Source: a virus (Duplodnaviria; Caudoviricetes). From it: a DNA stretch of 64,000 nucleotides. Location of the stretch: IMG/VR virus record IMGVR_UViG_3300033120_000983, positions 113 to 64,112 of that record; one strand, written 5' to 3'. Shown here piece by piece: positions 15,299 to 27,244 of this stretch. Numbering within the stretch: position 1 is the stretch's first letter; the number at the start of each line of letters is the position of its first letter. The notes under the pieces were generated by a model that was not told the DNA's origin, did no database searches, and worked only from the letters and a program-made list of their open reading frames with translations. Both the position numbers and the translations under genes were made by a program.

Positions 15299-15663
15299 AA
15301 CGCACCGCTCAGACCGCAAAATTCATCCATGGAATTGAAATGAAGCCGTGTCCTTCCTGCGGCGCGTTCAATATGCACTACAGGATGCCCATCCAAATGA
15401 AGGAGCCGATTTTGGCAACTGATGGAGCGAGGCAAATCCTTGGCAAGTGGGCGCGATCCATCAAAGACGGAAACACTCCATTGGAGGGGCCGTGTTTTAT
15501 GGTTTGCGAAGATTGCGGCCACAAAGGGCCGTCCATTGACTGCTCTGGCAGAACTTCCGAAGACGTGGGAAAAGACCCTTTGGTCGCATCTGAAATCAAA
15601 CGTATTTGGAACAGCCAGACTACTGTTTCACCGTCCCAATCTGATCAAGTGGCCGGGCCTTAA
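15295..15663 (+). CDS. Lar-like (restriction alleviation) zinc-ribbon protein
   Basis: MKPCPSCG...CEDCGHKGP...IKRIWN pattern. Confidence 0.6.
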   Translation: MKRTAQTAKFIHGIEMKPCPSCGAFNMHYRMPIQMKEPILATDGARQILGKWARSIKDGNTPLEGPCFMVCEDCGHKGPSIDCSGRTSEDVGKDPLVASEIKRIWNSQTTVSPSQSDQVAGP

Positions 15664-18600
15664 GCTCGTCGCGTGCCTGCTTCCGTGCATCCGAATAGGC
15701 GTCTTTGATCCGGTCCAGACTCTCCTGGTCACCCTTCAACGGCTCCCCCGCCAGCATCTTCCGCGCGAGTGTCCCGGCTCTGACATTCAGGAACCGGAGT
15801 GCCTGCGCGTTCAATTCGATGCGTTGTTCGCCGATTTCCAGCGTCTTACTGGCGCCCTGCGGTGCCCACGAGTCCGCGGGATTCGCCCGGTTCCAAGCCA
15901 GCAAGGCACGGTCCACGGGATGAACTGACTCCTCGGGCTGAATGGCGGAGGGAATGAGGAGGCGGGACACGGCATTTCCGGTTTTCTGCTTCTCCTCGCC
16001 GGAGCCCGGATTAACGCGCCCTGTGGTCCAATCGGGCATCGGCACCGCATCATACATCCACTCGCTCGAAGCGCCGTCAGGCACGCGGGAATCGCTGTTT
16101 CTGAGCGGCTGACGGATGATGTTCGGGACGATTCCCTGCAAGGCGAAGCGACGGGCCTTCTCGGCCATCGTGGGCCCGCCGCTTGTCTCGTCCATGCCGA
16201 GGAGGTCGGACATGGATTTCAGGCCGGACAGGAACGTCTTGTCGAGTGCCCCGCGCTTCACCGAATGGAAGACGGCATTCATCTTCTCTTGGGGGGTGCC
16301 GTCCGTTTTGCCGGAGCGGACGAAATCAGCTACGGTGCCGAGCACGGTCGCGATAGGCTCGATGCCGCCGTAGGGGATGACGGTGCGGCCGATCTTCACG
16401 ACATACGGTCCACCAAACGCGCGCTCCTGCAGTTCGCGTGCGCCCTTCTCCTTGGGGGCGGAACCGGTGATGAGGAAGCCTTTCTCGTAATCGTCGTCGT
16501 CGCCCTCGATGGCGGACATCAGAAGAGCGGTGCCGGTCCATGCGAAAAGCTGCTCGGCCAGGCCGCGGATAAGTGCGGGCGGCACTGTGGGGGCAACCTT
16601 CCCGCCCTGGAGTTTGACCCAGCCGGCTTTCGCCATTTGGGCACCCAGCACCACGGCACCCAGCGGGGAGCGGCGGATGCCTTCCCGATAGACGTTGTAG
16701 GGCGTCTTGGTGAAAGGGAAGAGCACGGTGGCGAGGAGCCGGATCGCGAGGTGTTTGGACTGACCTGCGGACACGATCATTTGCGGCACGGCATCGATGG
16801 GGTTTTGCGATGGGTCGAGTTTGTTCTGGAAGGTGTTGGTTTCCGCCTGACGGACGGCTGCTATCCACGCGGGGGAACCGGGCACGATCAAAAGTCGTTC
16901 CATGCGTTCATTGAAAGCTTGGGAGCCGGGGGTGAGCCCTTCTGCTTTGGTGATGCGGTAAGCGTGCGCGCCCGCCTCCATGGTGCCGAACAAACCTTTG
17001 AAGAAGCCGTCCGCTGCCATCAGCATGCGACCCGGCATCCGGACGATGCGGCCTTTGGTGCCACCGATTGCAATCTTCCGGTATTCGCCGACCGGACCGG
17101 TATCGATCAACGAAAGCTGCTCGTTGAGAACTTTGTGGGCAAAGTGGTCGGCTTCGGTGTCCCATGAAAGCGCCGCGAGTTTGATTCCCCGTTCCCATGC
17201 CGGCCCAAGGGCCTTCATGATAGCCCCGAACTCACCCATGGAGGCAGATTTATCGTTTTGGGCGACGACGTTGAGCATGGCTTCCATGCCGCGGGATGCG
17301 AATAGGTTCCATCCTCCGAAGAGCAAGTTGCTGGTGGCGTTCTTGAACTGCGTAACCGGGCCGGAGAGGAGGTTGTTGATCCAGTATTCGCGAAGCATGT
17401 CGAACGCCCCGGCCCCGGCGGCCTGCTGGATGCGCATTAGACGGTAAACGTCGTTCACGTCCGCGAGGTCGGCCCCCACGACGACGGACATTTCCACCGG
17501 CCGGCCGGGCTGTAGCAAGGGCCCGGGAAGTAGCGGCTGCTCCCCGCGGATGTCGCGAGGCATCGGCATCCGAACATAATCGTCGAGGGACATTCCCCCG
17601 GCGGCGGGCGGGACGGGCTTCCGGGTCACGACCTTCCGCTTGCCCTGTTGGGATTTGGGGAAGAAGCCGACGCGTTGCATGATGCGGTCCAACGCGAGTT
17701 CCTGCTCGACCGGGGAGAGGTCGGCGATGCCTCCGAAATCGAATTCGACCCATGGGTCAGGAGTAATGGCTTGGCTGTTGAGGACTCCGGTCTGTCCCTT
17801 GGCGGCGGCCGCGATGTTGACGCGGCGCCGAAGCTCCTCGCGGAATTTGGCGCGGGCCTTTTCGAAGGCGGATGCCGCAGCCCCTTCGGACAGTCCATGC
17901 TTGTCGGCAATGGTCTGGAAGGTGGCGGTGCCGTCGAGTGCATCGACTGCGGCCGCGACTTCCTTGTCCGCAAGCTGCCCTTTCAGGAAGGAGCCGACAA
18001 TATCCCGGCGGCGAGCCACCAGCATGCGGTCGCCGGCGAGAACGTCGTCGATGGTAAGCCCCATCTTGGCGAGGGCATCCTTGATGGCTTTGATGCGCTT
18101 GCCGTCTTTGGCGATGATGGCGGTGCGCTCCTCCGGCGTCTGTGCTGTTTCGAGTTCGGCGCGTACTTCCGGGGGTGGCATGAAGATGCCTTTCGCTACG
18201 GCTTCCCGGTGGCGTTCCTGCCGGGTTTTGAAGGGATCGACCCTGGCGCGGAGGGAACGGGCGGCTTCCGTGCCGGCGAGGCGGTTGGACCACACGAGCA
18301 ACTGCATCCGCTGCATCTGCTTTTGGTCCATGGGTTGCCGGGCTTCGAACTCGGTCATCATCTGCGCGGCCCGGGTCTGCTCGGGGGACAGGATGCCACC
18401 GCGGCGGCCGACGGAGGTGACGGCGCGGAAGGTGCCTTCGTAGTCGCGGGAGAGCATTTCGACGGCGGCCGCGTTCCACTGCTCGACCGTTTCCGCGGTC
18501 ACTTCCTCGGCATAAAGGTCGGACGTGGCCATGATGACGTCATCGCCTACCCCGCCGGCACCGGTTCCCGCCCCGAGGGCGCGTTCGGGGTCGATGATGG

Positions 18601-21600
18601 TGCGGTTCCCGGACTGCTCGAAACCGGCCTGGGCGGTGCGGGCGTCGATTTCGGCGGTATCGACTCCGAGTTGTTCGAGCAGACGTTTCGGGGATTGGGC
18701 GTAAAGAGGCTGGCCGACTTCAGCGACAGTCGATGCCATTTCCGGGGTGATTTGGACTTTCCACATTGGAATACCCGTGGCTGGAACCCCTGAATCCGCC
18801 GGGATAGCTGCGTATGCGGCTTGGTGGCGAGGATCCGTAATCCCATATTCCATCCTGGTTCGATCAGCTTCAGCCACTGCGGCTGTAAATTCCGCAGATG
18901 GACCTTTTCCTAAGTCCTGCTCGACCCGCCCCCCCCACTGCTTCACGTATTTAGCGACTTCTTTCGGGAGGATGTTATCGTAGAATCCCTTCATGCCCTC
19001 GCCGCCAACCATTGCCAATCCATCGCCGGACAAAACGTGAGCCTGCCGTCCCCGTGTAAGACTTTCCGGCTGCTTCTCAATCAGTTTTTTTGCCACTTCT
19101 TTTCCGATGTAATCCTCAATCTTTTCGGGGGCGACCGTTTCAGAAAGAACCGGGCTTCCATCAAGCCCATAGGCGCGAAGCTCTTGGTTGGATGGGTAGT
19201 ATTCCACTCGGGAAACCTGCTTCGACAGGTCGAATCGGTCGGCCTGAGTGGTGCCCGTGGTCCATCCAATCCACGACATAGAAGGGATAAAACTTGAATC
19301 GCCTGCATTACCATTTACTATGCCTGCATGGACATTCAAAAGACGTGCAAGTTCTGTGGATGCTGGTTCCTTGGCGGTCCCCGTAAAACCTTCTGTAGCG
19401 GTTCCTGCAAGACCCGATCGGGGATGCTGACCCGTGCTGGCGGACCCGTTCCTTGCGTGGCCTGTGGCGTTGTTTTCCAACCCAAAAACAAGGGAGCCAA
19501 GTTCTGCACCAGCACCTGTAGCAACCGGTTTAACGCCCCCTTGGTCGCTGACAAAATTGGCGATGCCAACCGGGGCAAGAAGCCCCACAACTTCACGGGC
19601 AGTGAGAGCACTTGCCTTCAGTGTGGGAAGAATTTCTTTATCGCTCCGTCCAGAAAGGGCCGTGTTCAGTGCTGCTCCAAGGCGTGCGGAGGTCTTCACA
19701 AGCGCGTCGATGACCCCGTTAGCTACGTCAGGACGGCCATCGACGGGGAGCGTATTCCAGACCACATCAGAGCCGCCAATCAACTGCTCGGGGCTAAGTT
19801 TATGGTCGGCAAGGTAACGCACCACATCGACAGGGACCGCCGCAACAATAGCCCGGCGAACTTGATCGTGTTTCCCGGCCAGTCGGAGCACGCCAGCCTC
19901 CACTGGGCCGAGCGTCGAGCGGGACGGATATTTAGCCCCCAAGAGGTCATCGCTAAGTTTCCCGATGCTGTCTGGCTTGGTGGCGTCTTTCCATGATGGA
20001 CTCCCTGCGGCGACGGCATCACGGAGGGCGCGCTTGAACATTTGAAGCGGCCATGTTTTCTCGAATGGCATAGAAGGCGTCTTCCCTTCATGGATGGTGC
20101 CTGATTCCTTGCGAATCTGTTGTCCGCGGTCCGACTGGATTTCTTCTATGAACAAGCCCGGGGAGCCTGACGAATCCTTTCGTTCGTTGGTGCGCAAGTG
20201 AGCGACGTAATTTGGAACGTCGGTGAAGTGGGGTGAAGTGTAGGGGCGATCAACAACTTCATTCCGGGCCATCAGTTGGCGTTGCTGGTCTTCGGTTAGA
20301 TCATAGATACTGTCCACGCCAAACATTTCCTTCGCCAGTTGGCGGGGGGTCTTTTTCTGGTCTTCGGTGCGTTTTGGAGGCATGGAGAGCACGATCTCGC
20401 GGTAGTTTTCACCCCCGGGAAGCTGGTATTGGGCGTATTGGCGGGCATCGGACTCCGAGCTGCTGTCTGCGATATTCCAGAGGCCATTTCTCTCCACGAA
20501 CCGCAGGTTTGGGCGGAGTTCGTTCTGGAAGTTCATTAATTCACGGTCCCCGCTGGCCTGCTCCACCAACTCCTCTTTTGTGGGGAATCCTTCGGTGAAA
20601 ACCATCGTTTCTGGACCGTTCACTACCTCCTCAAACTGCACGCGCCCCTCATTCCGCATGAAATTGAGCACGGCCTCCTTCGTGACGGTGCCTCCTTGGA
20701 AGTCGAGCCACGGGACAACGCCGGACCATTTGAGTTCGTCGGCCTTCACGTTCGCGAGAAGTGCTTTGACCTGCTCCTTGGAGGCGCGGGCCGGCATCTT
20801 CGCTTCGAGCATCTTTACGGCGGCGCTGTAGAAGCCGTCGGGCGAAAGAGTGGCGGCGGCCAAGGCGGCGGGGGACTGAGCCTGTAGCGATTCACTCGCC
20901 GGCCAACGGACATAAAAAGAACCCTTCCCGGTCCCGATTTGAATACCGTCGGCGTCTGGGTAAATGGACTTCAGAAACTCGCCAGTATCAGGGCCAAACC
21001 GCGCATTGAAATCGGACGCCCGGCGTGCTTTGACTGCTTCGAACATCACGTATCCCATGAAAGTTTCGAAAGCGTTTTCTGTAGGGAAATAAAGTGGGTT
21101 TTCCGGCAGGTTTCCAGCGGAAGGAAGAATCTTAACTTCCCCAAATTGAGCGGCTTGGGCGCGGTCCGTGGTGGTGTAGCGCCCCTTCCCGTAGGTGTAG
21201 GAATTCGAGCCAGATTTGTTGGATTCTCCACGAAAGACATTTTTAGGCGTTGGGCCTTTTCCTCCAATGGACGGTTGCGGCCTGACAGAAAGCACAGCTT
21301 GGCGCTCTTCATTCGTCAGCGGAGAAATGACCGGCTGAGACTGAATGGAAGGCGTGTCGGACAATGGCAGTTCCGGCGTCGCCTGCTCGGCGGCCTTCCG
21401 GGCGGCATCGACTTCACGGGCGCGCGCGGCGTTCGCTCCAGCAAGTTCCCGGGCCTCGCGGGCCAGGCGCTGGGCTTCGCTTTCAGCGGCCAGATTGAAG
21501 GGTTCGTCTTGGGCACCGGCAAGGAAGTCCTGCTGGCCGTCCGCGGAGACGACGCCGGCGGGTGCGGGCGCGGCTTCCATGCCAGCGCTCGGGAACTGTG

Positions 21601-24600
21601 CCACGGCTTCGAGGAGTTCACGGATCGGCGCATCCAGACGGATGACGTCCATGGGTTCGCCCGGCGTTTCCTGCATGGCGGCAAGCCACTGGTGGTGTCC
21701 GTCGAGCACATGGTCGTCGGAGGATACCAAGATGGCCCTGTTGCTTTCGCCGACCCACTCGCGCGCCTGTTTGACCTTGGCGGGCGAGTATTCGGCCTGC
21801 GTGGGGTGCAGGGAGCCCGGGAGGGCGGTTTCCCGCGTGAATTCGATGCCGCCGGCCCGGAGGAAGTTGGCGAGTGCGCCGCGGTGCTCGGTTTTGATCT
21901 GCGGCATCTGCTCGCGGGGAATACCGAGGGAGCGGGAGTCTTCCGCGAAGGCGGTCCACTCCTTGTCGATCTTTTCGCCGGCGAGGGATTCGGGGGTGTT
22001 GGTGACAACCGGTTCACCACTACCGGCGTTGTCGCTCATTTCTGGCTGATTTTGCTCAACAACACTCCAATCTGGATCGTTCGGCGCGTAGTCCTCCACG
22101 AAAAGAACCGTCGAGGGGTCGATTTCCTGCACTCCAAAGCGCGTCCCGTCCTTCAAGGTGATGCCCTGCAGCTTCCCGTCCGGCCCGGTTTCGAGGGATT
22201 GAACAACAACGCGGTCGCCTTCGATGATGAGCGTTTCCCCGACTTCGAGGTCGCGGGCATTCACCTTCACGCGGCCGTTCTCGACGGCGGCGTAAAACTC
22301 CACGGCCTGTCGCTCCTGTGCGTCGGCTCGTTCGTCGGCGGCATCCACCTTCCCGGGTGCCTCATCGAGGGCCATGAGTTCGGCGGTCACGCGGTCCCAT
22401 ACCTGCCGGCCGTAGAAATCCTTTGGATCCTCGCCAAGCGTCTCCGCGGCCTGCTGAAGTGCTTGGTCGGGGCTGTTGGTGTTGGACTGGTTCACCATGC
22501 GGCGGATGGCGTCCTGGGCGATGGGACGGCCCTGCCAGTCAGACTGCCGGGGCACGTTGTCCCATTCCCCGAGGTTCCGGAGGACGGCGCGGTCTTTCTC
22601 GGAAAGGCGTCCGCCATTCTTCTTCCGCATCGCCGCGAGGCGCGCGGCGGGGTTGCGGGGACTGATGCCGGCTTCCACGAGCGCGGTGACGACGGGGGAG
22701 TTTTCGGGGTCGAGACGGAACCGGGCTTTTTCGGTCCGTTTCTTCTTTGGTGCCCTACTGCCCTCTACTGCCCTCGTGCTGCCCTCTGCGGAAAGGGCAC
22801 GAACTCCGGCTTCCAGCATATCCGCGGCGGCGGTGACGCGGGCGATGGTGTCGGGGCTGGCCTTCTGTTTCTTGAGGGTGGCGGCGAGGTCGCGGAAGTA
22901 GGTCAGGAGCTTTTCAAGAGCGGCGGACAGCTTTGCCAGCACAGCGGCCGGCATTGTCTGCTCAGTCAGGACCGGACGGCCTTTCTTCGGCTTCCGGCCG
23001 GAGAGGCGTTGCTGCACCACCATCCGGAAGAATTCGTGCCCGAGATTTAGCGATTTGTTGCTCGACGGGTAGGCGGCGCGCACCTGGGCCTGCGTCTCTG
23101 CCGGCAGGGCGTCGAAAAGCTCCGTCATGTTGATTTCCCCGCGGGATTCCATCTGGACGGCAACGGAATGAATGACTTCCTCCTGAATGGCGCGCTCGAC
23201 CCACTGGAGCGAGTTGCTTCCGAGCGCATCGACGGATTCCGCCAAGGCCTTGAAGTCCAGCCGGAGCGATGGCGTGGCGGTGCCGGAATCGACCTGAACG
23301 CCGCCTGAGCCGGAATTCTGCGTTGTCGTGAAGCCACCGGGGAACGCCGCCTGCCAGCGGGTTGCCTCTTTGGAGAGCGCCTTAGCGACGGCTTGGTATC
23401 GGACGGCTTCCTTTTTGGAGGGCCGTCGGCCGGAGGCGGATGTGATGGCCTTGGCGATGCTGGCGGGGGAAATACCCGTAGGCGGTGCAGGTTTGACAGC
23501 TTCCTTCGGGGCAACTTGTAAGGAATACTTACCAGTTGGAATCACTTCGGGGGCTTTTGTGATTTTATCGGCGGGCGCTGGACTCATTTTGCCGGTGACG
23601 GGCGCGACCGCGTTAACGCTCCGGATCATCTTCCCGGGATACTGGCGCATGGCCGCGACTTCGGCATCCTCGCGGGTGGCGGCGGCGATAGTCACCGCGT
23701 CGGCAACGTCGTCAATTTCCACCTCGAAAGTAGCGTCCTGGCCGGGTTTCGGCCCCACCGGTTTTTCTTGTGGTTGCGTGGATTCAGCGATTTTGGTGCT
23801 GGTTTCAGCACCACCGGGTTCTTGCGGCTGCCGCGCGGCTTCGGTGGCGGTGACATTGGCAATGACGGCCGCGCGGCGCTCTGCCTCCGACTGTCCGATG
23901 AGCGGTGCAGTCGCGGGGAAAAGCTCCGTCATTCGGTCGATGGTGCTTTGGCCGATCACCAGTTCGCCGTTCTCGATGGTCACACGCGCGGTGCCGTCCG
24001 GGGAGTCTGCTTTGCCGCCGGCCTTCAGTTCGCCGCCGGGGCCGCGGGAAAGTCCAACGAGCGCTAGGGCGGCATTGTCGAGAGAATCCACCTTTCCGGA
24101 TGCGATGGCGACCAACGCTTTCGCCCGGGCCTTGTCCTGCTCGAAGCCGGCGGCGTCCCCGGGTGTTTCGAGTCCGTTGGCGTCAGTAATGGGCGGCGGC
24201 TCTGCGGTGTCGATTTCCTCCTCGGCGGCGGACACGAAAGAATCCCGCAGTTCGGAGCGGATCCCGGCAATGTATTCCTCCCGCTGGCCATATGCCTGCG
24301 CGAGCTGGTTGTTGCTGTAGAGGGTCTGCGCCTTCGACTTTGCGCCAGCGAGTTGTTCCTGTCCGTCCACGATCCGGGCATCAAATTCCGCGATTTTCGA
24401 AAGGACTTCCGGGGTGCGCTCCTCCATGGGCGAACCGGCAAGGGTTTCCGTGATGATGGCGGGGGAGTGCTGGGCGGCGATTTGCTGACCGAGTTCCCGG
24501 CGGACCGTGGCGGATTTGATTTCCTTCTCGGCATTGAACTTTGCTTTTACGCCGCCGGCAACGTCGGTCGCCGCATTCACGCCACCACCCAACAGGAAGG

Positions 24601-27244
24601 AGACGATGGCGGTATCGACAAGCCCTTCGGCGCTGTCCTGGCCGGGCTTGTAGGTCGCCCCGGCGAGCACGTTCTGGAAGAGTTGGTCGGGAACCTCCTC
24701 CAGGACTTCCTTTGCGCCCTCGACGGCGTAACCCTTGACCTTTTCGACGATCGCTTTTACGAGCGCGGGCTTGACGACGGAAAGAGTTGCCTCCTTGCCG
24801 GGGGCGAAGAGTTTCGAGAGCACCGCTTCTGCACCGGTGGTTCCGCCCGCGCGCGTCAGGCCGGCCGTGATGGCGCCAGATGCCAGGGCGGTAAGGCGGG
24901 ACTGCATTTCCCCCATTCCGGCCTTTTTGGCTTCGATCATGGTGGCACCGCCACTCTGCGCCCCGGCGGCGGCGGCGGATGCTGCCAGCGCGCCCTGAGC
25001 GCCGAACCCGGCCCCCCCGGTGACGATACCGACCCCGATGGATGGAACAAGGGACGTGGCACCACTGGCGAGGCTTCCAAGGAGTTCGCTGCCACCGCCC
25101 GCCGCCGCCGCCGCGCCTTCACGTTGCTGCGCTTCGATTTCCTTCTCGCCGGATCGTTGAGCGGCATCGGACCCAAAGAATGAACCGACACCGGCGACCG
25201 ACTGCCGGAGTCCGGAGAGTCCGCGGGAAACTCCCAGCACGATTTGATTCCAGTTCGGGGAGAAATCAGGGGATGCCATGAAGTCTGCGACGGCTTCCGC
25301 CTGCTCCTGCGGGTGGCTGGCGGTCGAGATACCCGGGGCACCAAGGCGTTTCGCGGTCTTCGCCTTCGAGGCATAGAAGGCTTCCGCGATGACGGGGTTT
25401 TCGTTGAAGGCTTGGAAGACGGGTTTGGCGGCTTCCTGTTGCATGAGGGGAAGCGCCTGCATGGCCTTTTCCTTGGCGAGCGGCGGGGCATCGGAGGCTT
25501 CCACGGCCGCAGTGTATTCGTCGGGCTTGAAGACCAGACGCGGGTTCACGTTGAGGGAGCCGAATTCCTTCGAATAGAATGCCGGGGCGTCTTCGTGTTT
25601 CCCGAGGAAATTCGCTTTTTGGTGCTCTTGGGACAGGCGGAATTGCTCTTCGTCCGGCAGCGAGTCCATTTCATCCCGGGGAGCGATGACATTCGCGTAA
25701 GCGGCGGCGGCCTTGGCCCGGTTCGCCTCTTGGGTGGCGGCATCCTTCTCGGCGGCTTTGGCGACTTCGGCACCGAACATCTTCTGTGCCTGGATGATGC
25801 CTTGCTCATCCTCGCCGTTTGCGGGGTCCATGCTGGACAGCACCCGCACGGCCCGGTCCATGGCTTTGACGGTTTCGGGCGCGGATCCATCGGTTCGGAG
25901 CATGTCGAGCCGGGCTTTCTCGCCCTCCATGATTTTGCTCCATGGAAGCGTGCCGGCCTTTGCTTCCGTGAGGGCTTTTTCGAACGGGACGGACTCGGGA
26001 GCTTTGCCGGGGGACTTTTTATCGGTCTGCGGTGCGCCCACAGCGGAAGCGGCGACAGTGGCGGCTTGCCGGGTCGCGGCTTGTTCATTCAGGGATTTGA
26101 TGAAGGCGTCGTGCTTTGCGACGTCCTCCTCCAATGAACGGCGTTTGGCGTCGATCATCTGTTTCCGGAGCGTCATCTGGCCCATCTGCTCCCGGATGGC
26201 GGGCGCGTCCTGGGGAAGGAAGTTCTTGGTCCGCGGCAGGAAGGCTTCGTAATCGGCGGCGTATTGGGCGTCCTCGGCGTCGAGCTTGGTTTTGATGGCG
26301 GTGATGCCGGCCCGCTGGGCTTCAAGCAGCTTCTGCCGCGGCGCGTTCACGGCGGCGGGGTCCATGCTGGCGAGGCGCTTGGCAGCGAACTCCTCGGCAG
26401 TCATGGTGCCTTGCGTGGCCTGCTCGATGCCGATTTGTGAAAGCCGCTCCTTTTTCTGCCGGATCGTTTCGGCTTTGGAGAGAACGGCGTCGTATTCGGG
26501 GGTCGAATACCCGCCGGCTTTGCGCTTCTGTGCTTCATCGATCTTCGCTTGGGTCACTCCATCGTAATCCGGATGAGAGAGTTCCGCGCGCAACGTCTTT
26601 TCCTCGGTCGTGAGCTTGTCCGCATCCTCCCGCATCAGGGTTTTCGCTGCCTCGTTCTGGATACGGGTGTCGGGATGCACCAAGGCATCGTTTGGCGCGA
26701 AGGCACTCCATGGCCTGGCCTTGTTTTTGACGTAGATGTTCGGGTCGTTTTTGTCGTCGGGGTTTCGGCCAATCTCGGCGTCTTTGTCCAAGTCCTCCAC
26801 TTTGAAAACCCCGTCTTTCCGGATGGTCTGCACGGCCCGGCCGGTGGGGTCGTATTCGACCGGCCCCTTCAGGTCGCGGGCGTTTGGCTGGCCGGTCAGG
26901 GGGTCGTTGACGGCTTCCACGGTTTTCGTCACCGGATTTGTCCGGTGCTGGATGGCCTGGGCATCGAATTCGAGGGTCTTGGCGAAGTTCTGCGTCGTGG
27001 TGGCCTGGCGGTCGGCCGCGCGCTGCGCAACGCCGGCGGCGCGTTCGGCGGCGATTTGCTCGCGTTCTGCGGCGATGGCTTGGCGTTCCGCGAGAATGTC
27101 CTGTTGCTCGTAGGCGCGTTCCTGCTCCTGCATGCCATCGCGGAGTCCGCTGCTCATCAGTTGCCGCGGGTCAACTGCGGACAGTGGCGCAAGGCCGGGG
27201 ATTCGGGACACGGGCGATAGGATCCTGCGGCGTGGTAGGGACAT
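15620..27244 (-). CDS. Giant polyvalent virion/ejection protein (3874 aa)
   Basis: Ala-rich helical regions with embedded zincin-like (EEVIH), ParB-like (LHPTQ...LDGHHQW), ART-like (FRG...GKGRYTTTD...FG) and LFIEEIQSD modules; podovirus internal-protein-like C-terminus. Confidence 0.88.
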   Translation of the reverse strand: MSLPRRRILSPVSRIPGLAPLSAVDPRQLMSSGLRDGMQEQERAYEQQDILAERQAIAAEREQIAAERAAGVAQRAADRQATTTQNFAKTLEFDAQAIQHRTNPVTKTVEAVNDPLTGQPNARDLKGPVEYDPTGRAVQTIRKDGVFKVEDLDKDAEIGRNPDDKNDPNIYVKNKARPWSAFAPNDALVHPDTRIQNEAAKTLMREDADKLTTEEKTLRAELSHPDYDGVTQAKIDEAQKRKAGGYSTPEYDAVLSKAETIRQKKERLSQIGIEQATQGTMTAEEFAAKRLASMDPAAVNAPRQKLLEAQRAGITAIKTKLDAEDAQYAADYEAFLPRTKNFLPQDAPAIREQMGQMTLRKQMIDAKRRSLEEDVAKHDAFIKSLNEQAATRQAATVAASAVGAPQTDKKSPGKAPESVPFEKALTEAKAGTLPWSKIMEGEKARLDMLRTDGSAPETVKAMDRAVRVLSSMDPANGEDEQGIIQAQKMFGAEVAKAAEKDAATQEANRAKAAAAYANVIAPRDEMDSLPDEEQFRLSQEHQKANFLGKHEDAPAFYSKEFGSLNVNPRLVFKPDEYTAAVEASDAPPLAKEKAMQALPLMQQEAAKPVFQAFNENPVIAEAFYASKAKTAKRLGAPGISTASHPQEQAEAVADFMASPDFSPNWNQIVLGVSRGLSGLRQSVAGVGSFFGSDAAQRSGEKEIEAQQREGAAAAAGGGSELLGSLASGATSLVPSIGVGIVTGGAGFGAQGALAASAAAAGAQSGGATMIEAKKAGMGEMQSRLTALASGAITAGLTRAGGTTGAEAVLSKLFAPGKEATLSVVKPALVKAIVEKVKGYAVEGAKEVLEEVPDQLFQNVLAGATYKPGQDSAEGLVDTAIVSFLLGGGVNAATDVAGGVKAKFNAEKEIKSATVRRELGQQIAAQHSPAIITETLAGSPMEERTPEVLSKIAEFDARIVDGQEQLAGAKSKAQTLYSNNQLAQAYGQREEYIAGIRSELRDSFVSAAEEEIDTAEPPPITDANGLETPGDAAGFEQDKARAKALVAIASGKVDSLDNAALALVGLSRGPGGELKAGGKADSPDGTARVTIENGELVIGQSTIDRMTELFPATAPLIGQSEAERRAAVIANVTATEAARQPQEPGGAETSTKIAESTQPQEKPVGPKPGQDATFEVEIDDVADAVTIAAATREDAEVAAMRQYPGKMIRSVNAVAPVTGKMSPAPADKITKAPEVIPTGKYSLQVAPKEAVKPAPPTGISPASIAKAITSASGRRPSKKEAVRYQAVAKALSKEATRWQAAFPGGFTTTQNSGSGGVQVDSGTATPSLRLDFKALAESVDALGSNSLQWVERAIQEEVIHSVAVQMESRGEINMTELFDALPAETQAQVRAAYPSSNKSLNLGHEFFRMVVQQRLSGRKPKKGRPVLTEQTMPAAVLAKLSAALEKLLTYFRDLAATLKKQKASPDTIARVTAAADMLEAGVRALSAEGSTRAVEGSRAPKKKRTEKARFRLDPENSPVVTALVEAGISPRNPAARLAAMRKKNGGRLSEKDRAVLRNLGEWDNVPRQSDWQGRPIAQDAIRRMVNQSNTNSPDQALQQAAETLGEDPKDFYGRQVWDRVTAELMALDEAPGKVDAADERADAQERQAVEFYAAVENGRVKVNARDLEVGETLIIEGDRVVVQSLETGPDGKLQGITLKDGTRFGVQEIDPSTVLFVEDYAPNDPDWSVVEQNQPEMSDNAGSGEPVVTNTPESLAGEKIDKEWTAFAEDSRSLGIPREQMPQIKTEHRGALANFLRAGGIEFTRETALPGSLHPTQAEYSPAKVKQAREWVGESNRAILVSSDDHVLDGHHQWLAAMQETPGEPMDVIRLDAPIRELLEAVAQFPSAGMEAAPAPAGVVSADGQQDFLAGAQDEPFNLAAESEAQRLAREARELAGANAARAREVDAARKAAEQATPELPLSDTPSIQSQPVISPLTNEERQAVLSVRPQPSIGGKGPTPKNVFRGESNKSGSNSYTYGKGRYTTTDRAQAAQFGEVKILPSAGNLPENPLYFPTENAFETFMGYVMFEAVKARRASDFNARFGPDTGEFLKSIYPDADGIQIGTGKGSFYVRWPASESLQAQSPAALAAATLSPDGFYSAAVKMLEAKMPARASKEQVKALLANVKADELKWSGVVPWLDFQGGTVTKEAVLNFMRNEGRVQFEEVVNGPETMVFTEGFPTKEELVEQASGDRELMNFQNELRPNLRFVERNGLWNIADSSSESDARQYAQYQLPGGENYREIVLSMPPKRTEDQKKTPRQLAKEMFGVDSIYDLTEDQQRQLMARNEVVDRPYTSPHFTDVPNYVAHLRTNERKDSSGSPGLFIEEIQSDRGQQIRKESGTIHEGKTPSMPFEKTWPLQMFKRALRDAVAAGSPSWKDATKPDSIGKLSDDLLGAKYPSRSTLGPVEAGVLRLAGKHDQVRRAIVAAVPVDVVRYLADHKLSPEQLIGGSDVVWNTLPVDGRPDVANGVIDALVKTSARLGAALNTALSGRSDKEILPTLKASALTAREVVGLLAPVGIANFVSDQGGVKPVATGAGAELGSLVFGLENNATGHARNGSASTGQHPRSGLAGTATEGFTGTAKEPASTELARLLNVHAGIVNGNAGDSSFIPSMSWIGWTTGTTQADRFDLSKQVSRVEYYPSNQELRAYGLDGSPVLSETVAPEKIEDYIGKEVAKKLIEKQPESLTRGRQAHVLSGDGLAMVGGEGMKGFYDNILPKEVAKYVKQWGGRVEQDLGKGPSAEFTAAVAEADRTRMEYGITDPRHQAAYAAIPADSGVPATGIPMWKVQITPEMASTVAEVGQPLYAQSPKRLLEQLGVDTAEIDARTAQAGFEQSGNRTIIDPERALGAGTGAGGVGDDVIMATSDLYAEEVTAETVEQWNAAAVEMLSRDYEGTFRAVTSVGRRGGILSPEQTRAAQMMTEFEARQPMDQKQMQRMQLLVWSNRLAGTEAARSLRARVDPFKTRQERHREAVAKGIFMPPPEVRAELETAQTPEERTAIIAKDGKRIKAIKDALAKMGLTIDDVLAGDRMLVARRRDIVGSFLKGQLADKEVAAAVDALDGTATFQTIADKHGLSEGAAASAFEKARAKFREELRRRVNIAAAAKGQTGVLNSQAITPDPWVEFDFGGIADLSPVEQELALDRIMQRVGFFPKSQQGKRKVVTRKPVPPAAGGMSLDDYVRMPMPRDIRGEQPLLPGPLLQPGRPVEMSVVVGADLADVNDVYRLMRIQQAAGAGAFDMLREYWINNLLSGPVTQFKNATSNLLFGGWNLFASRGMEAMLNVVAQNDKSASMGEFGAIMKALGPAWERGIKLAALSWDTEADHFAHKVLNEQLSLIDTGPVGEYRKIAIGGTKGRIVRMPGRMLMAADGFFKGLFGTMEAGAHAYRITKAEGLTPGSQAFNERMERLLIVPGSPAWIAAVRQAETNTFQNKLDPSQNPIDAVPQMIVSAGQSKHLAIRLLATVLFPFTKTPYNVYREGIRRSPLGAVVLGAQMAKAGWVKLQGGKVAPTVPPALIRGLAEQLFAWTGTALLMSAIEGDDDDYEKGFLITGSAPKEKGARELQERAFGGPYVVKIGRTVIPYGGIEPIATVLGTVADFVRSGKTDGTPQEKMNAVFHSVKRGALDKTFLSGLKSMSDLLGMDETSGGPTMAEKARRFALQGIVPNIIRQPLRNSDSRVPDGASSEWMYDAVPMPDWTTGRVNPGSGEEKQKTGNAVSRLLIPSAIQPEESVHPVDRALLAWNRANPADSWAPQGASKTLEIGEQRIELNAQALRFLNVRAGTLARKMLAGEPLKGDQESLDRIKDAYSDARKQARDELKARPLDQIGTVKQ
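19294..19321 (+). promoter_or_regulatory. Promoter of the nested HNH gene (leaderless)
   Basis: TTGAAT-N16-TACTAT-N6-ATG(19328). Confidence 0.55.
19328..19996 (+). CDS. HNH homing endonuclease with N-terminal CxxC zinc ribbons
   Basis: Three CxxC...CSxxC repeats; HHIDRDRRNNSPANLIVF...EHASLH HNH motif intact. Confidence 0.88.
   Translation: MDIQKTCKFCGCWFLGGPRKTFCSGSCKTRSGMLTRAGGPVPCVACGVVFQPKNKGAKFCTSTCSNRFNAPLVADKIGDANRGKKPHNFTGSESTCLQCGKNFFIAPSRKGRVQCCSKACGGLHKRVDDPVSYVRTAIDGERIPDHIRAANQLLGAKFMVGKVTHHIDRDRRNNSPANLIVFPGQSEHASLHWAERRAGRIFSPQEVIAKFPDAVWLGGVFP

Follow-up and report, generated by a model that had tools for sequence, protein, structure and literature searches.

An HNH endonuclease gene nested antisense and in codon register within a giant phage gene: a probable homing element that needs no splicing

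How can a gene for a protein of 3874 residues remain open from end to end when a complete endonuclease gene lies inside it on the opposite strand? This question is raised by the window studied here, a stretch of 64,000 nucleotides (nt) corresponding to positions 113 to 64,112 of IMG/VR virus record IMGVR_UViG_3300033120_000983, a linear sequence of 64,112 bp with a CheckV completeness of 66%, whose phage context is given by terminase, major head and portal genes. A giant gene, probably of the polyvalent-protein type, is interrupted in this window by 723 bp carrying an HNH endonuclease gene. We consider it highly probable that this insert is a mobile HNH homing element which requires no splicing and is translated through by the host gene as a passenger loop. 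The parts of the locus, in window coordinates, are the following:

15620..27244, minus strand: giant open reading frame (ORF) of 3874 amino acids (aa), probable polyvalent-protein type, open across the insert
20003..20797, minus strand: N-terminal part of the host domain (...LFIEEIQSD...FKRALRDAVAAG), which aligns with insert-free homologues up to the junction
19280..20002, no strand assigned: inserted element, 723 bp or 241 host codons (host residues 2415-2655)
18545..19279, minus strand: C-terminal part of the host domain (MSWIGWTTG...GEGMKGFYD...KQWGG...), where alignment with insert-free homologues resumes at the junction
19328..19996, plus strand: HNH endonuclease gene (222 aa and a TGA stop codon), antisense to the host in exact codon register

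In the giant protein, ...FKRALRDAVAAG is followed by 241 residues and then by MSWIGWTTG..., and the motif split in this way, ...AVAAG followed after two residues by WIGWTTG, is contiguous in about 40 homologues that lack the segment at this exact site, as an initial annotation of the window had proposed for related proteins. In these insert-free cases, listed from a BLASTP comparison with 120 of the 611 homologues found for the giant protein, the alignment extends to ...AG and picks up again at WIGWTTG after two residues. At the DNA level, three insert-free genes (L123-L125) read GGC AAG CAG/GAC TGG ATC GGC TGG and the window reads GGG (723 nt) ATG TCG TGG ATT GGA TGG at the same site, which places the boundaries of the insert to within a few nucleotides. 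In both ORFs, the codon start positions are 2 modulo 3, so that the giant and the HNH ORFs overlap codon on codon in antisense, and the insert offsets are 0 modulo 3. Furthermore, the coding signal changes strand within the insert, since GC content at third codon positions (GC3) falls in the host frame from 0.73 outside the insert to 0.51 inside it and is 0.69 in the HNH frame. The HNH ORF occupies 669 of the 723 nt, and the short non-coding 5' and 3' ends of the element are stop-free in the host frame.

From its sequence and its AlphaFold2 (AF2) model, the plus-strand ORF is a genuine HNH protein with the beta-beta-alpha-metal fold and a predicted nuclease. It matches Pfam HNH_3 (PF13392; 26.5 bits versus a cut-off of 24.8, residues 146-184) and six PHROG families annotated as HNH endonuclease (best E = 1.4e-15), and these assignments and the coordinates agree with the intact 222-aa antisense ORF described initially. 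The AF2 model has a mean predicted local distance difference test score (pLDDT) of 83, and its top match in VIA-align is the homing endonuclease I-HmuI (1u3e; Z 5.6, a modest value, with a root-mean-square deviation of 2.8 A over 68 residues), followed by other HNH nucleases; a Foldseek search with the whole model gave no clear match, and a sequence search of the PDB with the protein gave none. Two regions can be distinguished in the protein:

19346..19687, plus strand: three CxxC...C...C zinc-ribbon repeats (approximately residues 7-28, 43-64 and 96-120), read from the translation
19763..19903, plus strand: HNH catalytic core (residues 146-192), pLDDT > 90

In the catalytic core, H146, H165, H166, N174, N178 and H188 are kept in all 14 homologues that are nested in the same way in other loci, and every Cys, His or Asn column that is invariant across these 14 is retained in the window's protein; H192 is present in the window and constant among the first six homologues, and is replaced by T in 2/14 (L087 and L119). 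The invariant zinc-ribbon cysteines are C43, C46, C60, C64, C96, C99, C116 and C120, the first repeat being found in some nested homologues only. The repeats are probably DNA-binding modules, and since nested HNH genes carry either two or three of them, the DNA-binding array seems to be modular. At the same insertion site, the element of protein P0004 (around its residues 2937-2960) lacks 37 loop residues, about one zinc-ribbon repeat of the HNH N terminus (window 19328-19520).

The continuity of the giant frame could be a coincidence of GC-rich coding sequence, the antisense frame being open by chance or the HNH gene lying between two gene halves, in which case continuity would be meaningless. 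The window taken by itself speaks for this: as the initial annotation had cautioned, antisense frames are often open in GC-rich genes, and the host's codon usage predicts an open in-register antisense frame over 222 codons with P ~0.31, 34% of the 222-codon windows in the giant gene having such an open frame. Long antisense ORFs are indeed frequent and apparently spurious inside this gene, for instance those of the plus strand at 20939-23050 (703 aa) and 17648-18793 (381 aa); as a negative control, seven other long antisense ORFs yielded no Pfam match (0/7), and they look like by-products of GC-rich coding sequence. Thus, the single case is not significant, and it is the recurrence of the arrangement across loci that exceeds chance.

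To assess recurrence, the 241-residue loop peptide was compared by phmmer with 1.84 billion representatives of 50%-identity clusters; this returned 87 matches including the window's own protein, 70 of them at E <= 1e-10. Among the 86 other clusters, 75 have representatives longer than 1000 aa, up to 5630 aa. When insertion sites were mapped by placing the flanks on the insert-free domain, the loop homologues fell on six or more distinct sites in a stretch of about 180 residues of this domain, and approximately 20 clusters carry them in other domains. The sites within the shared domain, numbered on it, are:

Site ~207: before ...VLFIEE
Site ~230: after EEIQSD..RK
Site 265, occupied in the window: after ...AAxxG and before ..W.TTG (about 20 clusters)
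Site 281: after TTG.TQ..R(F/Y)
Site ~340: before G.GMKGFYD
Site ~385: after KKWGG.VE

The DNA of four loop-matching proteins, with five inserts, holds an intact antisense, in-register HNH ORF of the same zinc-ribbon plus HNH architecture in 5/5 cases. As matches to the loop peptide are open by ascertainment, viral and metagenome contigs were also searched with the HNH as the starting point, irrespective of the host frame. Each of the nine distinct strong relatives recovered there (E <= 1e-26) is nested in register in an antisense ORF of 1132-2196 codons, in hosts with a GC content of 0.42-0.58, and with one exception these ORFs are open over the whole fetched locus; a 704-codon antisense ORF at GC 0.65 (L014) was excluded as a possible chance case. 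The further antisense in-frame HNH inserts for which the initial annotation had suggested a screen are therefore found with both searches (5/5 fetched inserts and 9/9 strong relatives). The weaker HNH_3 relatives from the same scans are free-standing, between phage genes, and a single-protein scan of viral contigs with the window's HNH gave no match. Furthermore, a search with the HNH protein of a word index of 5.8 billion proteins, restricted to near lengths, returned nothing at E <= 1e-3; as the loop itself is present in 87 clusters, gene callers apparently miss these nested nuclease genes.

Two further observations concern the range of the nested elements. Two loops occur in a single protein in P0123, P0124, P0125 and P0127, and the P0123 locus carries two intact elements (L004:6498-7085 and L004:7254-7853) at different sites about 170 bp apart, with 35% identity to each other. 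Antisense, in-register nesting is also found for an HNH architecture of a second type, composed of a single zinc ribbon, the HNH core and a helix-turn-helix (HTH) at the C terminus, inside ORFs that are open for 1900-2130 codons:

L009:2818-3573: second-architecture element
L013:2872-3477: second-architecture element
L034:2935-3405: second-architecture element

In this register, host-frame stops can arise only from the HNH codons TTA, CTA and TCA, and the 14 nested HNH genes contain none of them, versus 60.6 expected from host codon usage. The per-locus probability of having no forbidden codon is as low as 2.7e-6 (L087, host GC 0.40) and approximately 9e-5 (L006 and L119), and for layouts recurring in hosts of GC 0.40-0.50 it ranges from 3e-6 to 4e-2. 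Conversely, 30/30 free-standing relatives contain forbidden codons (mean 5.8, or 4.0 at GC 0.45-0.62). Thus the proposal that the antisense frame is actively kept open stands on a comparison of genes, and coincidence becomes extremely improbable: the single domain split by the insert is uninterrupted in homologues, in-register nesting is seen in all strong relatives, and no free-standing relative has an open antisense frame. Moreover, synonymous sites among the nested genes are near saturation (synonymous differences per synonymous site, pS, ~0.69), so that the lack of TTA, CTA and TCA has been kept up continuously and is not the trace of a one-time filter.

Since openness of the host frame is selected, ribosomes would read through the insert; the simplest reason implied for it is that they cross the insert and that the 1200-plus host residues downstream of it matter. 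In the mechanism that we propose, a free-standing-type HNH homing gene would have invaded a conserved domain of a polyvalent-protein gene, antisense and codon on codon; with the three codons avoided and the ends of the element stop-free, the host ribosome would continue across it, and the giant protein would gain a loop of 241 residues.

Whether this loop is itself under selection was addressed with one codon alignment of nine nested genes, giving 36 pairs. Identity was higher in the HNH frame than in the loop frame in 35/36 pairs, changes at HNH codon position 3 exceeded those at position 1 (which is host position 3) in 35/36 pairs, and the mean ratio of nonsynonymous to synonymous differences per site (pN/pS) was 0.59 in the HNH frame and 0.88 in the loop frame. 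Purifying selection thus acts on the HNH frame, a check that the initial annotation had called for, and not on the loop frame, and the conservation of the loop peptide is a shadow of the HNH gene. This result bears on the possibility of true dual coding, in which the loop would be a functional folded module with protein-level selection on both strands. Loop peptides can be aligned across 86 clusters, and in the AF2 model of the domain plus loop, residues ~35-140 of the loop (window 19583-19900, host residues ~2449-2554) are helical with a pLDDT of 75-87, which is higher than that of the host domain; these predicted helices may represent a real fold, or may be an artefact of a conserved alignment and complementary hydropathy. 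Antisense register and constraint on the HNH would by themselves predict conservation in the loop frame, whose identity is lower in nearly all pairs and whose pN/pS is close to neutral; the loop matches no family or fold, the rest of it has a pLDDT below 35, and most homologues function without it. We therefore regard dual coding as quite unlikely.

The same model gives an indication of how the host domain might accommodate its passenger. The model is of low confidence (mean pLDDT 56, from an alignment of 11 sequences) and places the insertion site at the turn between a helix (WPLQMFKRALRDAVAA) and a strand (WIGWT), so that the loop would project from a helix-to-strand turn between two conserved motifs. 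A Foldseek search with the domain-plus-loop model gave no clear match. Site 230, in turn, falls in a linker whose length varies naturally among insert-free homologues.

An alternative in which the giant protein never carries the loop is that the insert is removed, either by a self-splicing RNA that has escaped recognition or by an atypical intein-like reaction. In its favor, highly conserved motifs adjoin the insertion sites, which is usual for introns and inteins, and the authors who described a comparable element, the ShiLan domain, could not fully exclude splicing either (PMC11855218). Conversely, an Rfam 15 search of 18800-20500 on both strands with permissive filters gave no match at E <= 1, and the strand of the HNH ORF, which fills 669/723 nt, is not the one expected of an ORF within an intron. 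For the loop peptide, no match to Pfam, PHROG or intein families, Hint domains included, was found, and its ends are not intein-like, as it begins with Ser and ends in ...IPS before Met-Ser (S...M|S), with no His-Asn. Flanking residues also differ between elements at different sites. The statement of the initial annotation that neither a ribozyme nor an intein is present is in line with these searches. The strongest argument against RNA splicing, however, is that an excised intron needs no open in-phase frame, and yet this openness is strongly selected; the near-neutral loop frame likewise speaks against an intein-like module. Removal of the insert is consequently very unlikely.

If the loop is a translated passenger, the distribution of the element should tell whether it has moved. 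The window's element is sister to that of P0004 at the same site (support 98), and the two are 57% identical in the unselected frame, compared with 44% and 41% for the flanking halves of the host domain. Conversely, the closest hosts are empty: the insert-free P0005 has 59% and 49% identity to the window's giant protein in the flanks and 66% in the 974 aa that follow downstream, and the insert-free P0006 is 50% and 44% identical in the flanks, identity downstream of the insert being 64-66% in these two proteins. Hence, presence of the element is discordant with host relatedness; the site is occupied in P0004 and about 20 other clusters, and empty in about 40 homologues. On a quick tree of the elements, in which related sequences share site labels, these labels change 29 times compared with a mean of 54.4 after shuffling, and 29 changes were reached in 0/200 shuffles. 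Patchiness, site-specific lineages with some switches, multiple occupancy of one gene and conserved-motif targets together point to the pattern of homing endonucleases; the HNH would cut insert-free alleles of this domain in co-infecting relatives, and repair of the cut would copy the element in.

A nuclease gene that is intact, under purifying selection and equipped with a conserved promoter might alternatively have been domesticated by the phage, for excluding competitors, for DNA packaging, or for antisense regulation of the giant gene, whose late expression could be modulated by head-on transcription. Passages of two sources indicate that phage HNH genes can serve in packaging or in competition between phages (PMC3592412; PMC11620839). 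A domesticated gene is compatible with a homing origin; however, the closest hosts manage without the element, its lineages are site-specific with occasional switches, one gene can hold two elements and insertion is always at conserved DNA motifs, all of them hallmarks of homing, and we regard domestication as the explanation as unlikely.

As a mobile gene that runs against its host, the endonuclease would be expressed from a sigma-70-type promoter of its own on the opposite strand, probably through a leaderless mRNA. The signals upstream of the HNH gene are:

19294..19321, plus strand: promoter-like signals read from the sequence, with a -35 hexamer TTGAAT (19294-19299) and a -10 hexamer TACTAT (19316-19321)

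The spacer between TTGAAT and TACTAT is 16 nt, TACTAT ends 6 nt before the ATG at 19328, and no Shine-Dalgarno sequence is present; because the -10 hexamer sits exactly 6 nt before the ATG, the sequence suggests a leaderless mRNA that starts at or next to the ATG. The promoter and leaderless start postulated initially gain comparative support, since TAnnnT occupies positions -12 to -7 in 10/14 nested elements, versus a background of 0.6% per position, with -35-like hexamers such as TTGACT and TTGCTT located 16-18 nt upstream; as the nested sequences are related, this is conservation and not 10 independent events. In the HTH subfamily, a -10-like hexamer together with a Shine-Dalgarno sequence was found in 2/3 elements (L013 and L034), L009 being ambiguous. 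These promoter signals lie within the host frame and hence also have to be stop-free. Three terminator-like sites in 18800-20500 are no more than expected by chance.

Besides the probability of about one third with which the frame of this one window would be open by chance, several points weigh against the reading of the insert as a translated homing element. The 86 clusters were found through the loop peptide, so that they are open by ascertainment, and the check at the DNA level covers five inserts. Among sequencing runs, none recorded as RNA contains this DNA; we infer the transcription of the nuclease gene, translation of the loop at the protein level, cleavage and homing. An insertion of 241 residues beside highly conserved motifs might damage the domain, tolerance being deduced from the low-confidence model and from recurrence. 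The promoter match is weak (8/12 consensus positions) and was not flagged by a generic scanner, which reported no site in 18800-20500. Set against the absence of forbidden codons across loci, the frame test and the distribution of the elements, these points leave a homing element translated through as a passenger loop the highly probable reading.

The ends of the element were compared with those of the other elements at site 265. Its 5' end (AGAAGGGATAAAAC on the plus strand, 19280-19293) reads ...FIPS in the host frame, and most elements at this site end their loop with a similar (K/F)(Y/I)xP(S/G) motif, which points to conservation of a terminal sequence ahead of the -35 hexamer. For this reason 'IPSM' at the end of the loop is taken as part of the element's 5' end, and its derivation from host sequence carried over from a site-230 target was ruled out. 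The two host codons between the insert and WIGW (19274-19279) are ATG TCG (Met-Ser) in the window and encode Lys-Asp or Lys-Gln in insert-free homologues. This ATG just after the insert could in principle permit translation to restart; being absent from the other site-265 elements, it is probably incidental. In contigs of the probable source sample, the matches were the source contig itself and short stretches of conserved motifs belonging to other giant genes, and none of them offered an informative joint across the insert.

The host gene probably belongs with the polyvalent proteins of phages and conjugative elements (Iyer et al., 2017; PMC5512222), giant multidomain proteins encoded near packaging genes, with LPD, ART-PolyVal or ParB-type domains as characteristic modules; homing and inteins are unmentioned in that work. 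Many of the 611 homologues of the giant protein carry Pfam polyvalent-protein domains (LPD, ART-PolyVal and others; PF18796, PF18760, PF18763 and PF18823, among others), and the window's own protein has nothing in Pfam at E <= 0.1 except a sub-threshold Nif11 match (13.9 bits versus a cut-off of 23.8). The domain that holds the insert has no Pfam match, sequence searches of the PDB with both of its halves gave no match, and a tblastn search of the region against phage GenBank sequences returned just two weak matches, both in the C-terminal flank. The composition of this domain also departs from that of its surroundings, with a GC content of 0.52-0.60 and a host-frame GC3 of ~0.58-0.72 at 18900-21500, compared with 0.63-0.69 and 0.74-0.84 in the rest of the giant gene; it could be a recombined or co-converted module, or the composition could be specific to the domain.

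Taken beyond this locus, the recurrence leads us to consider as rather probable, with less assurance than for the window itself, that there is a guild of splicing-independent, 'antisense-nested' endonuclease genes which is evolutionarily stable, whose codon choice is selected from both strands, and which has radiated to numerous sites in the polyvalent-protein genes of many lineages of uncultured phages, with at least two architectures (zinc-ribbon and HTH). A compact promoter of host type, in many cases with a leaderless mRNA as its product, would allow members of such a guild to make their nuclease independently of the late giant gene. Homing genes inside expressed genes are thought to survive by means of self-splicing introns or inteins, or by sitting between genes. 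The elements described here suggest a further route, which would be a third general solution beside introns and inteins: the gene is placed backwards, codon on codon, three codons are avoided, and the host ribosome reads through. If this is true, a class would be added to the known mobile elements, and nature would offer a case of long-term selection on two strands with a simple codon signature; it would also explain why gene callers miss these nuclease genes. Furthermore, there would be proof that giant polyvalent proteins of phages can accommodate 200-240 extra residues at defined sites, a property of use in engineering, and a family of nucleases with modular zinc-ribbon arrays, probably site-specific, would be at hand.

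Comparison with known systems places these elements among several types of selfish DNA. Selfish short non-coding repeats of ~100-150 bp are tolerated in ORFs, in frame, and are translated as an extra peptide segment. Unlike such repeats, which have no gene of their own, the passenger in the window is an entire protein-coding gene, under selection and located on the opposite strand. With inteins and group I introns that carry homing endonucleases, the nested elements share conserved-motif targets, site-specific lineages, several sites per domain and a patchy distribution; inteins and introns, however, restore the host product by splicing, whereas no ribozyme or Hint domain is detectable here and the frame is kept open. 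Free-standing phage HNH homing endonucleases (I-HmuI-like HNH_3 proteins; T4 mobE) resemble the window's protein in their HNH_3 core, small size, extra DNA-binding modules, own promoter and conserved-gene targets, and free-standing relatives of its family do exist between ordinary phage genes. Free-standing homing genes are found between genes or cut a gene into two parts, and the gene for I-HmuI lies within an intron; to our knowledge, no free-standing homing gene is read through in antisense by the gene that it has invaded, and 30/30 free-standing relatives of the window's HNH would stop the antisense frame.

An antisense location is known for homing endonuclease genes in group I introns of nuclear rDNA, which, as described in excerpts of PMC9548176, likewise run opposite to the invaded gene with expression signals of their own; in the cases covered by these excerpts, the gene lies inside a self-splicing intron of a non-coding rRNA gene, where there is no frame to preserve. 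The closest parallel is the ShiLan domain, the 'hidden HNH' insertion of mycobacteriophage DNA methylase genes (Arsenault, Gosselin and Gogarten, 2025; PMC11855218). Like it, the window's element is a stop-free, in-frame insertion in a phage gene with a patchy, homing-like distribution, its product is an HNH read from the same DNA in another way, features of introns and inteins are lacking, the insert is predicted to form a loop of the host protein, and leaderless initiation is suspected. The ShiLan HNH, however, shares the strand of its host gene in a different frame and depends on the host transcript for its translation, whereas that of the window is on the opposite strand, in register, and has a putative promoter of its own; moreover, ShiLan hosts are methylase genes, and the hosts here are giant polyvalent-protein genes, in 86 further clusters and at six or more sites. 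Opposite strand and exact register make the window's element a variant of the ShiLan type and not a member of it. The words antisense, reverse, opposite and complement are absent from the text of PMC11855218, and in full-text literature searches no account was found of an endonuclease gene that lies antisense and in register and is read through by its host. The nested elements thus appear to be a widespread and essentially undescribed variant of the hidden-HNH insertion elements.

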